The notes under the pieces were generated by a model. The model was not told where the DNA came from and made no database searches. It saw nothing but the letters and a program-made list of their open reading frames with translations. From an uncultured Candidatus Saccharibacteria bacterium (GTDB taxonomy: Bacteria; Patescibacteriota; Saccharimonadia; CAZBQI01), in NCBI GenBank assembly GCA_964494105.1, contig CAZBQI010000005.1:10646-74645 (forward strand): a stretch of DNA of 64,000 bases, in the 5' to 3' direction. Below, piece after piece: positions 5,452-39,475 of the stretch; within the stretch, counting starts at the first letter, position 1; every line of letters begins with the position of its first letter. Both the position numbers and the translations under genes were made by a program.

Positions 5452-6042
5452 ATGCTACCTGCAGCTTTAGAATCGCTAATCTCCGAACTTGGCCGTTTGC
5501 CTGGAATTGGTCCTCGAACGGCTGAGCGCTTAGCGTTTTTTTTACTAAAAGCAAACCGCTCGCAAAGCACTCAGCTTGCACGGAGCCTAGAAGACCTGCA
5601 TGCAAATATTCGGTCGTGTAAAACTTGTTTTAACCTTAGTGAGAATGATTTGTGCTCAATTTGCCTCAGTACTAAACGCGACCCATCGGTTATAGCCGTA
5701 GTAGAAGAGCCACTTGATGTTATAGCACTTGAAAAAACAGCAATGTATCACGGCAAATACCATGTACTCGGCGGGGTAATATCACCAATTGACGGTATTG
5801 GGCCAGAGCAACTACACATTAGGCAACTACTTAGTCGTCTAGCAAATAACAATGTCAGTGAAATAATATTAGCGCTCAACCCTAGCACAGAGGGCGAGGC
5901 AACAGCACTCTATTTGCAACGGCAATTTCCACCCGAGGTAAAGGTTACGCGTCTAGCCCGCGGTCTACCTATGGGTAGTGATCTTGAGTATGCTGATCAA
6001 ATAACTCTGGGCCGTGCCCTAGAAGGCAGACAGGCAGTATAG
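5452..6042 (+). CDS. recR: Recombination protein RecR
   Basis: N-terminal HhH (PGIGPRTAERLAF), C4 zinc finger (CKTCFNLSENDLCSIC) and Toprim domain; 196 aa. Confidence 0.9.
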   Translation: MLPAALESLISELGRLPGIGPRTAERLAFFLLKANRSQSTQLARSLEDLHANIRSCKTCFNLSENDLCSICLSTKRDPSVIAVVEEPLDVIALEKTAMYHGKYHVLGGVISPIDGIGPEQLHIRQLLSRLANNNVSEIILALNPSTEGEATALYLQRQFPPEVKVTRLARGLPMGSDLEYADQITLGRALEGRQAV

Positions 6043-7231: not shown

Positions 7232-7516
7232 ATGATTGAATCAATCAAACCAAACAGTAGGGGAGCTTTCGCCGGCGAATTAACTAGCACTGTTCATATC
7301 GCTATCGCCGATGAGGGTCAAGACATGCCTTATTTGTTCCTCGATCAACCAACTTTCGAAGAAGCACTTAATACTCTCGGCCAAACGAATACAGTTTTAA
7401 GTGCTCTTAAGCATTTAGTAGTGTTTCCATATATAGCTATGGAAACACGCATCGTACCAATTTATGAGCGATTAGTTCGTGATCACATAACAGCATTATC
7501 TCTTTGTCGGATCTGA
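7232..7516 (+). CDS. Hypothetical small protein. The ATG at 7232 is preferred over the upstream start at 7199, which lies inside a hairpin.
   Basis: RBS AAAGGAG sits 6 nt before the ATG at 7232. The 7199 start falls within the stem-loop CCGCCTC..GAGGCGG followed by a T-run. Confidence 0.4.
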   Translation: MIESIKPNSRGAFAGELTSTVHIAIADEGQDMPYLFLDQPTFEEALNTLGQTNTVLSALKHLVVFPYIAMETRIVPIYERLVRDHITALSLCRI

Positions 7517-36211: not shown

Positions 36212-37069
36212 CTACCTTCGAGCTAGTTGCTTGCGAAAATGAGCTTTTTGCCGCTGCCTAAATGAATCTAAATAATCAACTTCTGCTTTCATGGCGCCCC
36301 CGGTAAATAGACTCGAGATTATCGCTGCTAATTCATTCCATGGCAACGCCGTAAATAAATTATCTGCAGCTGTACCAGCGTGATTAATATTTAGAACATT
36401 GGTTAAATTTGCTTCGGCAATTTCACACCGGTTCCTTCTCAGGACAGCACCTAAGTTATCGAGTTCATCTGGATTCAGAAAGTCTATCTGATAAAACGCA
36501 AAGTGTTTTTTTTGCATAGCATCTCTTACTTCTTGGTATCTATATTGATCAGTAAGGAAATGCTGCCCATCGTATGTCGAATCTTGCACTGCCATATTCC
36601 ATGACTGCATTCTAGTAGTCAAGTATTCAGTAGCCATAAAAACACCTGTTGGAGTACCAAATAAATTTGATTCAAGCCACGCAAAGAATTCTCGTTCTGC
36701 TTTCATAAAGGATCGAAGATTATCATGACGATTAACAAGCTCCACATGAACCCGCTGTGTAAAAAGCACCCATGGATCCTTATCGCAAAACATTACGACT
36801 TCATCATCTGGAAGGTGAGCCATAGCTGTTTCAAATGAGCCGTGGCCAACTATCATAGTAGCAGCATGCATACCTGTTGTAGGTTCGGGCCTCATCTGCG
36901 CTGCACGCTGATACGCCACACCAGTAAAGCCGTCATTGCTCGTTAGATAATGCAAATCCATGCTATAGCCTGGATCAAAATCTAACGGCGGGCCGGCCAT
37001 AGTAATCGCCGTCGCAATTTCGGCAGGAGATAAAACCTCTAAACTAGGAACTTCACCAGTAACGGTCAT
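36212..37069 (-). CDS. Hypothetical protein
   Basis: 285-aa ORF with uniform coding-like composition; no motif recognised. Confidence 0.4.
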   Translation of the reverse strand: MTVTGEVPSLEVLSPAEIATAITMAGPPLDFDPGYSMDLHYLTSNDGFTGVAYQRAAQMRPEPTTGMHAATMIVGHGSFETAMAHLPDDEVVMFCDKDPWVLFTQRVHVELVNRHDNLRSFMKAEREFFAWLESNLFGTPTGVFMATEYLTTRMQSWNMAVQDSTYDGQHFLTDQYRYQEVRDAMQKKHFAFYQIDFLNPDELDNLGAVLRRNRCEIAEANLTNVLNINHAGTAADNLFTALPWNELAAIISSLFTGGAMKAEVDYLDSFRQRQKAHFRKQLARR

Positions 37070-37101
37070 TAAGGTTTTATAACAGCTTTTCTACAGATTG
37101 T

Positions 37102-37662
37102 CTACCCAATGTATGCCGTCACCAGCACCGTTGCCCAAAACAATAGTAGGTAGATGTATTGGTAGATAAATATCTTCTCTCGACTTTTCTTCGAAATAAA
37201 AAACATACACCAAAACAGCGTCATCACCAAAAAACTGATCATGCTAAAGATTTTGGGAAACCCCGAGATAGCGGGTGAGACACTCATCCAAAGTGTAAAG
37301 ATATACATGGTCAACGCCATAGTGAACGCGGCGATGTAGTGAATGATGCTGCTCAAGCCTTTACCAGTATCCGGAACCCATGCTGCAGTTAACTGCCCGA
37401 TGCTGCCAATTGTAATTATTGCAGCCAAAACCATACTCAAGTGATAATGCGGTACAAACCAAAAGACAACAAACAACCAAAAGAAACTTTGACCAACAAC
37501 CGATGTGATTGCAAAAAGCAGATATGGCCGCTTATCGAGCGCTATATGCTTGCTTAGCGTTAGCGCATTATCAGCATGCCATTTGTGGCTAATGTACGCA
37601 GTTACCGCCACAAATATTGCTATCGAGTATAAACCAAAATATTTAAATGCTTCTACGCTCAT
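37102..37662 (-). CDS. Hypothetical polytopic membrane protein
   Basis: 186 aa, about 6 TM helices. Confidence 0.5.
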   Translation of the reverse strand: MSVEAFKYFGLYSIAIFVAVTAYISHKWHADNALTLSKHIALDKRPYLLFAITSVVGQSFFWLFVVFWFVPHYHLSMVLAAIITIGSIGQLTAAWVPDTGKGLSSIIHYIAAFTMALTMYIFTLWMSVSPAISGFPKIFSMISFLVMTLFWCMFFISKKSREKIFIYQYIYLLLFWATVLVTAYIG

Positions 37663-37712
37663 TGCTTGTAATCATAACAAACTAAATAAACGTATGAAGC
37701 TGAAATCAGATT

Positions 37713-37730
37713 TGGTGCCGCGGGTGGGAG
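37713..37730 (-). repeat. Direct duplicate of the 3'-terminal 18 nt of tRNA-Leu (up to 23/24 nt with 3' flank), 144 bp downstream of the intact gene
   Basis: tggtgccgcgggtgggag occurs at 37713-37730 and at 37875-37892. The extended match is GATTT-GGTGCCGCGGGTGGGAGT versus GATTTATGGTGCCGCGGGTGGGAGT. Confidence 0.6.
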
Positions 37731-37837
37731 TATAGAAATATAATCTGTATCAGTGCTCGAAACTAGGAGGTAGTTTCTGCGCGCTGATTTGATTATCGAA
37801 CCCTCGCTTTGCTGTGTGGGTTCGACCATAAAGTAAT

Positions 37838-37873
37838 AAATCCACAATTTCACTAATGTGAACATGTGGATTT
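37838..37873 (-). terminator. Near-perfect palindrome immediately 3' of tRNA-Leu, a putative tRNA terminator
   Basis: AAATCCACAATTTCAC TAAT GTGAACATGTGGATTT: a 9+4 bp interrupted stem, one nt from the tRNA CCA end. Confidence 0.45.
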
Positions 37874-37874
37874 A

Positions 37875-37963
37875 TGGTGCCGCGGGTGGGAGTCGAACCC
37901 ACACTCCCGGTAAAGAGAACTGGATTTTGAGTCCAGCGCGTCTGCCAGTTCCGCCACCGCGGC
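37875..37963 (-). tRNA. tRNA-Leu (anticodon CAA), long variable arm, encoded CCA
   Basis: The reverse complement GCCGCGGTGGCGGAACTGGCAGACGCGCTGGACTCAAAATCCAG...GTGGGTTCGACTCCCACCCGCGGCACCA shows anticodon loop CTCAAAA, T-arm GTGGG-TTCGACT-CCCAC and a 17-nt variable arm. Confidence 0.9.
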
Positions 37964-38008
37964 ATAAATACTATAGTAGTAATTTTGCAAGATTATTACT
38001 AGTAGACT

Positions 38009-39475
38009 ATGGACTTTTTCACTTATTTATGCTATAGTTTTCTTAGTATGACAGATACAAATAATGTTCCTGTAGCACCAAGGCATGGTTATGATTACGA
38101 AAATCTAGACCCTCAAAATCTCGGCAGTGGTGATCCTTTCGACTATGCAAAAGGTGGCATTACAGCGCAAAGACTACCATTAGATAATTATGTTAAAGGC
38201 AAAAAGCAAGACCCTCTGCAAATTGATACTGCATTCGGACGAAGAGCTTGGATCCCTGCGTTAGCTAGCGAAGTGCACGACGTAGTAAACGCCACCAAGC
38301 CAACTACCGCTCTAGAACAAACTACACAAACAATAAACGCACTGCGCTATGTTGAGCGAACTTGGTATGACCGAAGCGCTAGGCTAATTCAAGCAATTGA
38401 GTACGGAGATGATGAGAGAGCAGAACGGCTAGCCCGTGAACTTAATAGCTCTTTACAAGAAATCTACCCCTTACCAGACAAAAATAAAGTACTAACCTTA
38501 ATTTCTGCCGATTCAAGTCGTAATGAAATGGTAGCAGATGCATATAGTCAAGAACTTGAAAAGGGTAGCGCTCCGACAGAAGAGGCAGTCAATCTGGAGA
38601 AAAAATACGAAGCAGAACTATCTGAAATAGCTGGCGTAATTAAAGAAATGTACGGAGAAATTATCGATGAATCTGTACCCGAAGATAGCGTAGAAGTCTA
38701 CACCCCACATGAGGTAGAGGAAATCTTAAATCAGCTTATTCTTAAACTAAAAGAGGAAGACCCAACAGTTGCCTGGGGTAGAGTAGGTGTCTTCCTGGAA
38801 GACGGCGGAGTGGTATTTTCAACTAAATCGAGCGATGGGAAAGTGACAGTAAATGTACCTAGCGATAGCAATGAACTAAATGCCACCGAGCTACGAGGTA
38901 TTATTAGTCACGAATTATTGTGGCATGCGGCTCGCGCTGCCAACGGCTGGGAAGCAGGAAAGAATGATAAGCAACTGGCAGATATACTTGGCGTGGGAGC
39001 GCCATTTTATCTCAGATTTGAAGAGGCTATGGCGATTATTTGTGAGCTGGCGTTTACTGGTAAAATCGAGCAAATATTCATTGACCGCTATATAGATATC
39101 GCGATCGCAGCCGGGGTGTTAGACGATAAAATTCGAACTCGGCATGAGCTACAAGAGTTCGTATTCAAACGAGAACTCACCCGAAAAGGCTATTCGAGTG
39201 ATGAACAGTTGACTGTAGCAGAACAGAAAGAACTGCGCATTCATGTAGATCGAATTTACCGAGGCGGTGATGGTGGCGATGAGAATAAATTTGTAGTGAT
39301 TTTTCCCAAAGATGGCGAATACTTTGGCGGTGCCGAACCGTCCCTTCAGTGGTGGCAAAGTCAACGAGCAGAGGGTAAATCTGCATCCGAAATCTTTATT
39401 GCCGCTCGTAGAGGTAAAATTAACCCTATGATACCTGGCCAATCGGAGTTAGTGCCATTAGATAAAGCTTCATAG
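38009..39475 (+). CDS. Hypothetical HExxH-containing protein (possibly DUF1704/QEGLA-like zincin)
   Basis: 488 aa; ISHELLWHAARAANGWE (HExxH..E) followed by EEAMAIICE. Family assignment is tentative. Confidence 0.45.
   Translation: MDFFTYLCYSFLSMTDTNNVPVAPRHGYDYENLDPQNLGSGDPFDYAKGGITAQRLPLDNYVKGKKQDPLQIDTAFGRRAWIPALASEVHDVVNATKPTTALEQTTQTINALRYVERTWYDRSARLIQAIEYGDDERAERLARELNSSLQEIYPLPDKNKVLTLISADSSRNEMVADAYSQELEKGSAPTEEAVNLEKKYEAELSEIAGVIKEMYGEIIDESVPEDSVEVYTPHEVEEILNQLILKLKEEDPTVAWGRVGVFLEDGGVVFSTKSSDGKVTVNVPSDSNELNATELRGIISHELLWHAARAANGWEAGKNDKQLADILGVGAPFYLRFEEAMAIICELAFTGKIEQIFIDRYIDIAIAAGVLDDKIRTRHELQEFVFKRELTRKGYSSDEQLTVAEQKELRIHVDRIYRGGDGGDENKFVVIFPKDGEYFGGAEPSLQWWQSQRAEGKSASEIFIAARRGKINPMIPGQSELVPLDKAS

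Follow-up and report, generated by a model that had tools for sequence, protein, structure and literature searches.

A duplicated tRNA-Leu 3' end bounding a short non-coding segment in a Candidatus Saccharibacteria genome, possibly the relic of an intron-less homing-endonuclease cassette

P4-family tyrosine integrases, and several genomic islands likewise, use about 20 bp of the 3' end of the tRNA-Leu gene leuX as attachment (att) site, and integrase-less remnants which can be mobilised in cis are known for att sites of this family. In mitochondria, mobile endonuclease ORFs (that of Allomyces atp6 is one of several such cases) are inserted together with a new 3' end of the host gene, whose displaced original 3' end lies dead downstream; no splicing is involved. 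In phage T4 the free-standing homing endonuclease SegB, which belongs to the GIY-YIG type, is found in the phage tRNA cluster (PMC2330249). In Patescibacteria the anticodon loops of tRNA genes have been described as the home of self-splicing group I introns, which sometimes carry endonuclease genes (PMC13011429).

The locus described here lies in a stretch of 64 kb from a Candidatus Saccharibacteria bacterium (the whole of which is called the window), with three tRNA genes, tRNA-Leu(CAA) being one of them. Like the P4-type att sites it presents a T-loop-to-CCA direct repeat of about 20 nt, a rebuilt tRNA and an empty site in relatives. However, its insert of 143 bp holds no integrase and none was found at the related tRNA-Leu loci examined, and what such repeats are seen to enclose in this phylum are genes for homing endonucleases. 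The likeness to T4 SegB is that of intron-less nuclease genes beside tRNA genes, whose spread depends on cleavage of the tRNA region in genomes devoid of them (PMC2330249); GIY-YIG genes occur at the same tRNA in relatives of the window organism. The T4 gene belongs to a phage tRNA cluster, whereas the window has no nuclease gene. As far as we know, the description of SegB includes neither a partial tRNA duplication nor an orphan fragment. The nearest parallel known to us is that of the atp6-type endonuclease ORFs, although their hosts are protein-coding genes of fungal mitochondria and the host is here a bacterial tRNA gene. With the group I introns the locus shares the phylum and the use of tRNA genes as the target of selfish elements (PMC13011429), but in the window the tRNA is uninterrupted and the insert comes after it and is too short for a group I core. 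A group I intron was thus rejected, the tRNA being contiguous, the insert being of 143 nt and no Rfam intron family being detected at E values up to 10. In the searchable literature nothing was found on Patescibacteria endonuclease cassettes that sit at tRNA-Leu together with a partial copy of the gene.

The features of the locus are collected in Table 1. An earlier note on this DNA had described an 18-nt repeat of the tRNA-Leu 3' end with 144 bp between the copies; the repeat is real, although its exact length is 19 nt and the gap is 143 bp, so that the two copies are 162 bp apart from start to start. In the tRNA sense the repeat reads ACTCCCACCCGCGGCACCA (TGGTGCCGCGGGTGGGAGT on the plus strand) and comprises A58 of the T-loop, the 3' strand of the T-stem, the acceptor strand, the discriminator and the CCA. 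The orphan copy has the same orientation as the tRNA and is placed downstream of it. The match resumes in the 3' flank, past a 2-nt indel, for another four bases (AATC). That the proximal copy shares this AATC with the resident flank is a hint of local duplication rather than import, which would count against the relic of a cassette. When up to three mismatches were allowed only these two matches were found in the 64 kb, so that there is no third copy within the window (the note had considered one outside the region it could scan), and none of 100 shuffles contained a match. No comparable duplication was found at the other two tRNAs of the window. The arrangement is base-for-base identical in two other metagenome samples (L001 and L002; loci are designated here by L numbers), an identity which does not inform the polarity of the indel.

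Table 1. Features of the tRNA-Leu(CAA) locus, with positions in the window
Feature	Position	Strand	Remarks
186-aa membrane protein gene; resident downstream neighbour, not cargo	37102..37662	-	Homologue directly after the tRNA in L127
Resident flank between orphan and next gene	37663..37712	-	Promoter-like site at 37698-37671
19-nt repeat, distal orphan copy	37713..37731	-	Exact repeat; sequence beyond it corresponds to the post-CCA sequence of L127
Non-coding insert body, 143 bp between the copies	37732..37874	.	Absent from L127
T-arm-like fragment AGCGAGGGTTCGA	37796..37808	-	Direct repeat
Inverted exact 13-nt copy of the tRNA T-arm 5' half and T-loop (GTGTGGGTTCGAC)	37814..37826	+	Pairs with 37892-37904
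AT-rich palindrome touching the last A of the CCA	37836..37875	.	Arms 37836-37853 and 37858-37875
19-nt repeat, proximal copy within the working tRNA, T-loop A58 to CCA	37875..37893	-	Exact repeat
Intact tRNA-Leu(CAA) gene with encoded CCA	37875..37963	-	ARAGORN; Rfam tRNA 58.9 bits, E 9e-12
488-aa HExxH protein gene; resident upstream neighbour, synteny anchor	38009..39475	+	Homologues in L126 and L127

The near-perfect palindrome which the note had placed at the CCA was confirmed, with arms of 18 nt that are 89% complementary and a 4-nt loop, and so was its T-loop-like fragment, which is the exact inverted copy of the T-arm 5' half. In addition, the T-arm-like fragment AGCGAGGGTTCGA stops in the T-loop exactly at the point from which the orphan starts, 64 nt further on. 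Judged from the sequence, this fragment and the orphan read as the two parts of a single orphan T-arm that is split within the T-loop. For about 64 nt of the insert the 64 kb of the window contain no local template, and no further copies of the insert were found there. Only short ORFs (68-76 aa) cross the insert. Searches of the insert and of the window, with a profile of 120 homologues for LAGLIDADG and by tblastn with GIY-YIG queries, detected no remnant of either endonuclease, and the small inserts of other genomes were likewise found to hold no coding remnants of nucleases or serine recombinases. The absence of an ORF from the insert counts against a cassette relic, for which the endonuclease link comes only by analogy and from neighbouring lineages.

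A decayed second tRNA, in either orientation, was considered and rejected, since the scores past the 19-mer and the 13-mer are no better than those of shuffles; the similarity past the inverted 13 nt was equalled in 169 of 1000 shuffles. The edge of the similarity is sharp, with 19/19 identity and then shuffle level, which points to a discrete breakpoint in the T-loop and not to a tandem tRNA that decayed slowly.

The same site was found without the segment in the relative L127, where the tRNA-Leu(CAA) is identical to that of the window (89/89). Its CCA is directly joined to AATCTAATC..., which is followed by the -10-like TGTTATGATTA, also present in the -10 region of the window's promoter-like site, and then by the homologue of the 186-aa gene. 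This flank matches the sequence after the window's orphan at 116/159 positions, whereas the match to the sequence after the proximal CCA (74/159) is at background level. What distinguishes the window from L127 is therefore a repeat-bounded, non-coding indel of 162 bp, made up of a second T-loop-to-CCA copy and of the 143 bp. As the L127 flank matches the post-orphan sequence, the orphan and its flank represent the resident arrangement, and the orphan is probably the displaced original 3' end. L127 could also have lost the segment through recombination between the repeats; whichever polarity holds, the segment was inserted at some time. The reading of the repeat as the mark of an insertion, made in the earlier note, is in this way supported by an empty site and by a segment that is not universally conserved. 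A conserved terminator or processing structure of the tRNA was rejected, because the segment is absent from L127 and the terminator scan was negative. The orphan is intact (19/19) although the adjoining flank is only about 73% identical between the window and L127, and this disparity with a flank divergence of about 27% suggests that the event was fairly recent or that the orphan underwent gene conversion with the tRNA, at a distance of 162 bp, as donor.

The neighbours of the site (membrane protein, DUF7790, HExxH, sortase and PEGA) were described by the note as an accessory-looking cluster. This is contradicted by the synteny of the flanking genes in L126 and L127, with the gene order HExxH-sortase-PEGA-MreB-Wzy-GT4-WecG common to the three, and by the position of the 186-aa gene after the tRNA in L127. 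The HExxH protein has two homologues on long contigs, those of L126 and L127, with 47-48% identity. The 186-aa protein has only two clusters of homologues in the protein database, both within a 764-bp block that recurs in several contexts, with no tRNA. Moreover, no G+C discontinuity was found across the tRNA, where the note had proposed to look for a discontinuity of GC skew or codon usage. The scar is not a marker of a genomic island.

In L126, a second relative, which has the same upstream flank, the resident tRNA-Leu is present only as a 5' fragment that ends at the anticodon loop and whose D arm contains a 19-nt palindrome. The fragment is followed by a gene encoding a GIY-YIG nuclease, by the start of a second tRNA-Leu(CAA), whose acceptor stem differs from that of the resident tRNA, and by the end of the contig. 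This cassette, palindrome included, is also found in the Saccharibacteria genome L006 (71% over 346 nt). The tRNA site is thus a proven hot spot for endonucleases in relatives of the window organism.

The 19-mer was searched for in species-representative genomes and in JGI metagenomes, and most matches were intact tRNA-Leu genes of Patescibacteria. Matches outside Patescibacteria lay inside G+C-rich coding sequence and were set aside as due to chance or specific to a gene. In several distinct Patescibacteria loci (L012, L025/L080, L035/L062/L102, L045, L074, L094, L101 and L110) the 19-mer is an orphan that comes 27-810 nt after an intact tRNA-Leu and is oriented like it; L024 has a pair of orphan copies with 702 bp from one to the other, and L100 and L081 a 17-nt version of the orphan. 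Among the inserts, those of L074 and L094 hold genes for LAGLIDADG endonucleases, that of L110 one for a GIY-YIG nuclease, and those of L101 and L024 ORFs with no Pfam match. Altogether an endonuclease gene of the LAGLIDADG or GIY-YIG type lies between the tRNA-Leu and the orphan in L074, L094, L110, L119, L121 and L132. In seven loci (L110, L012, L025, L074, L119, L121 and L132) the acceptor strand of the orphan is mismatched to the adjacent tRNA, which indicates that the orphan was not derived from that tRNA; going by these sequences, the mismatched orphans may have been imported together with the cassette.

The layout of the window is also that of L100 and L081, where a tRNA with CCA is followed by a hairpin, 150-185 nt and the orphan, with no nuclease gene. 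Both inserts sit between tRNA-Leu(CAA) and a PAP2 gene, a position that is taken by a LAGLIDADG gene in L121 and L125, and the two differ by the loss of a whole hairpin from one of them. In L132 the T-arm of the orphan is interrupted in its T-loop by about 100 nt of hairpin-rich DNA, which is the same construction as that of the window (37808-37796, then 64 nt, then 37731-37713). The small orphan-bearing inserts of other genomes differ in sequence and have their layout in common, and the larger ones carry genes. At the loci that bear a nuclease the proximal tRNA usually has no encoded CCA and the nuclease gene begins at once. In the window both copies have the CCA and a hairpin, not a start codon, comes after the tRNA, and this is a point against a cassette relic. 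Of the 86 fetched loci with a tRNA-Leu, 25 hold, at a distance of at most 1 kb, a gene for an endonuclease or a recombinase or the remnant of a recombinase.

The LAGLIDADG endonuclease of L094 has at least 963 homologues at E <= 1e-5, the best 120 of which are 59-75% identical. The DNA was read in six distinct contexts (L094, L119/120, L121-124, L125, L128-131 and L132), and in all six the LAGLIDADG start codon lies 2-6 nt past the discriminator of tRNA-Leu(CAA); in four of them an orphan tRNA-Leu 3' fragment is present after the stop codon. In addition, 11 homologues have over-called N-termini that read through the tRNA-Leu 3' end. As a single conserved locus (RelA ... tRNA-Leu ... PAP2-FolD-SHMT) provides much of this evidence on LAGLIDADG genes, part of the pattern may reflect vertical inheritance.

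These observations are best, if tentatively, explained by taking the segment as the relic of an intron-less cassette of the homing-endonuclease type, like those which invade tRNA-Leu genes throughout the phylum; a partial duplication would have preserved the tRNA, and the cassette would since have lost its nuclease gene. The explanation is given as a possible one, and not as a likely one, because the insert holds no trace of a nuclease. In such a scheme a small selfish cassette would sit at or in the tRNA-Leu gene, and the partial duplication of the gene would avert the killing of the tRNA. The nuclease gene would be placed between the working tRNA and the leftover tRNA fragment, and the latter could also act as homologous sequence when the cassette is copied to a further genome. 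The allele of the window would have lost its nuclease gene in the usual cycle of gain, decay and loss of such genes, and would retain a hairpin-rich stub, the T-arm fragment that is broken off in the T-loop and the 19-nt orphan. Most probably this stub is inert, save for the hairpin placed after the tRNA, and this palindrome could be a weak terminator for it, although the scan for the terminator consensus did not pick it up. Extended to the phylum, the proposal would be that large families of intron-less LAGLIDADG and GIY-YIG cassettes invade specifically the tRNA-Leu genes of Patescibacteria, that the tRNA survives through partial duplication of its gene instead of splicing, that the duplicated fragment travels as a second homology arm, and that the window presents a nuclease-less relic or a miniature non-autonomous copy; in this wider form it is slightly less probable.

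The scar of a P4-like tyrosine integrase is an unlikely origin for the segment. The two 19-nt copies would then stand for attL and attR, and an almost complete later deletion of the element would have left an integrase-less stub mobilisable in cis. The anatomy fits this equally well, with its T-loop-to-CCA direct repeat, its intact tRNA and a relative with an empty site, and a 19-nt direct repeat of this extent, which is also left by P4-type integrases, counts to that degree against a cassette relic; the leuX att sites of P4 and several islands, of about 20 bp, are of the same kind. Nevertheless, no integrase or recombinase was found among the genes in or adjoining the site in the window, and the 19-mer has no match in the viral contigs of IMG/VR, so that no phage attP with this core was found. 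The 121 ORFs of at least 150 aa located up to 3 kb downstream of the tRNA-Leu genes of the fetched loci were surveyed against Pfam, and most matches were to housekeeping families. Phage_integrase is not among the 25 most frequent families listed for these ORFs, a list outside which families with one or two ORFs may fall. A regular expression for the box-II motif, a crude test, was matched in no Patescibacteria locus, its two hits being both in unrelated loci of high G+C content. Finally, as the flanks are resident and the indel is of 162 bp, the deletion of such an element would have to be almost exact. Of the att-like integration scar proposed in the earlier note there remain the repeat-bounded insert and the empty site, with nothing that indicates a tyrosine integrase, and the large element that it supposed to be mostly deleted is possible but unneeded, as the whole indel measures 162 bp.

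The segment could also have arisen with no element at all, by the error-prone repair of a double-strand break that hit the tRNA gene in its T-loop or 3' end, made for example by an endonuclease that circulates in the lineage and mended by copying nearby sequence in both orientations with the addition of filler DNA. We regard this as improbable. The direct (19 nt and AATC), inverted (13 nt) and near (10/12 nt) copies of the tRNA, together with the 18-nt palindrome, are what such a repair could leave; the insert has no gene, and the site is an endonuclease hot spot in relatives. Against it stand the roughly 64 nt with no local template in the window and the common layout of the small inserts in other genomes, whose larger counterparts carry genes. 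Moreover, to our knowledge templated-insertion repair is poorly documented in bacteria.

It is very unlikely that the segment is a working RNA, be it a terminator or insulator that separates the tRNA from the gene after it, or a small structured RNA with a tRNA-like CCA tail. The 212 nt after the tRNA do fold strongly (-57.6 kcal/mol, z = -5.8 against shuffles), with a hairpin directly after the CCA, and the orphan has stayed intact beside a flank that diverged. However, the tRNA of L127 and the same downstream gene do without the segment, the only Rfam family found over 37000-38600 at E values up to 10 is the tRNA, and the hairpin fails the terminator consensus. The acceptor strand of the orphan has no 5' partner, the analogous inserts of L081 and L100 differ by the loss of a whole hairpin, and no diverged copies exist for an analysis of covariation.

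Large serine recombinases are the third kind of mobile gene seen at tRNA-Leu in the phylum, beside the GIY-YIG and LAGLIDADG endonucleases, and they account for 2 of the 121 ORFs surveyed. By tblastn, full recombinase genes convergent with the tRNA-Leu and abutting its CCA were found in L060, L064, L109 and L111. In the first three they are flanked by inverted repeats of 101-137 nt whose outer tip is the GCACCA of the tRNA, and no inverted repeats were detected around that of L111. Decayed C-terminal remnants adjoin the tRNA-Leu in 11 more loci, and in L025 an orphan 19-mer is fused to such a remnant. In spite of these full genes, remnants and fused orphan, the origin of the segment from a large-serine-recombinase element with long inverted terminal repeats at the tRNA-Leu CCA is nearly excluded, because these elements start at GCACCA with an inverted copy at their tip whereas the repeat of the window is direct, and because tblastn matches in the window solely the antisense of the tRNA.

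A duplicated tRNA 3' end that bounds inserted DNA is a known kind of footprint, and the copy in the window is small and probably inert. Its value is that of a pointer: the 3' part of tRNA-Leu is, in this lineage and widely in Patescibacteria, a hot spot for at least three kinds of selfish element (LAGLIDADG, GIY-YIG and serine-recombinase), which leave tRNA fragments behind, and the cassette family is the more interesting lead. If the homing-cassette reading is true, it would reveal a means by which endonuclease genes are maintained, with no need of introns, in tiny genomes, and it would account for orphan tRNA fragments and for assembly breaks at tRNA genes. It would also provide natural nucleases whose target, the end of a conserved tRNA gene, is known beforehand. 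Moreover, an intron-less cassette of this kind would add to introns and inteins a third form in which a homing endonuclease gene can reside within an essential-type bacterial gene.

The LAGLIDADG family represented in L094 (L numbers denote loci fetched from other genomes and metagenomes, mostly of Patescibacteria) has at least 963 homologues, and in all six distinct DNA contexts that were read the gene begins 2-6 nt past the discriminator of tRNA-Leu(CAA). An orphan consisting of a tRNA-Leu T-arm and acceptor, mismatched to the host tRNA, is often found 3' of the gene. In L074, L119 and L121 the tRNA-Leu genes adjoining LAGLIDADG genes carry the T-loops TGCAAGT, TGCAATT and TTGGACT in place of the usual TTCGACT or TTCAACT. 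Since TGCAAGT is shared by the tRNA-Cys of two loci (L108 and L086), these variants may be a trait of the phylum rather than a resistance to cutting.

The GIY-YIG cassettes are composed, in order, of a dead 5' fragment of tRNA-Leu, the nuclease gene and a further tRNA-Leu(CAA) gene, which is complete in L006 and L073 and truncated by the contig end in L126, a relative with the gene order of the window. In L126 and L006 the D arm of the dead fragment holds a 19-nt palindrome, CTGCCTGCCGGCAGGCAGG. Between these two loci the fragment, palindrome included, is almost 100% identical whereas the GIY-YIG ORF is only about 70% identical, which suggests that the fragment is under constraint or was recently converted.

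Coordinates of features in the window and in the fetched loci
Feature	Locus	Positions	Detail
LAGLIDADG gene	L094	8446-9162	
LAGLIDADG gene	L119	2501-3223	
LAGLIDADG gene	L121	2501-3175	
LAGLIDADG gene	L125	2501-3184	
LAGLIDADG gene	L128	1501-2268	
LAGLIDADG gene	L132	1501-2295	
tRNA-Leu, unusual T-loop	L074	1200-1285	
tRNA-Leu, unusual T-loop	L119	2411-2496	
tRNA-Leu, unusual T-loop	L121	2411-2496	
GIY-YIG cassette	L126	1-440	minus strand
GIY-YIG cassette	L006	80-600	minus strand
GIY-YIG cassette	L073	490-1000	minus strand
tRNA-Gly to tRNA-Leu(TAA) region with GIY-YIG gene	L063	1480-2150	minus strand
Large serine recombinase gene	L109	5829-7334	inverted repeats 5874-5974 / 7376-7476
Large serine recombinase	L064		inverted repeats 25-137 / 1726-1838
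Large serine recombinase	L060		inverted repeats 13-149 / 1713-1849
Large serine recombinase gene	L111	11315-12817	
186-aa protein gene	window	37102-37662	
764-bp block	L113	1-764	186-aa homologue
764-bp block	L114	1505-2268	186-aa homologue
764-bp block	L115	1040-1803	186-aa homologue
764-bp block	L116	523-1286	186-aa homologue
102-aa ORF region	L024	1-800	
196-aa ORF region	L101	1340-2200	
Logan contig end	window	37939-37966	
Logan contig end	L126	1	
Logan contig end	L127	1	

Large serine recombinase genes (L109, L064, L060 and L111) lie convergent with tRNA-Leu and touch its CCA. In the first three, inverted repeats of 101-137 nt with identities of up to 100% flank the gene and have the GCACCA of the tRNA as their outer tip; these units could be IS-like or invertible segments. 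Decayed serine recombinase remnants adjoin tRNA-Leu at 11 other loci.

Downstream of the window tRNA a gene encodes a polytopic membrane protein of 186 aa, for which a set of 5.8 billion proteins contains only two clusters of homologues. Despite this rarity, a homologue is conserved next to the tRNA in L127, the relative with an empty site. Another homologue, 61% identical, sits within a block of 764 bp that recurs at 100% identity in at least three different contexts, and the left edge of this block, TGCACCA, is possibly the terminal stretch of a tRNA-Leu that has been lost.

The short-read (Logan) contigs of three samples stop inside or just beside the tRNA-Leu of the window locus, which fits repeated or polymorphic sequence there.

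Two orphan copies in L024, 702 bp apart, enclose a 102-aa ORF, and in L101 a 196-aa ORF lies between repeats of about 40 nt from the 3' part of tRNA-Leu(TAA). Neither ORF has a Pfam match, so each may encode a nuclease that escapes recognition or else be cargo. The order in L063 is tRNA-Gly, the orphaned 3' part of a tRNA-Gly, a GIY-YIG gene, the 5' part of a tRNA-Leu and lastly tRNA-Leu(TAA), so cassettes leaving tRNA fragments are not restricted to tRNA-Leu.
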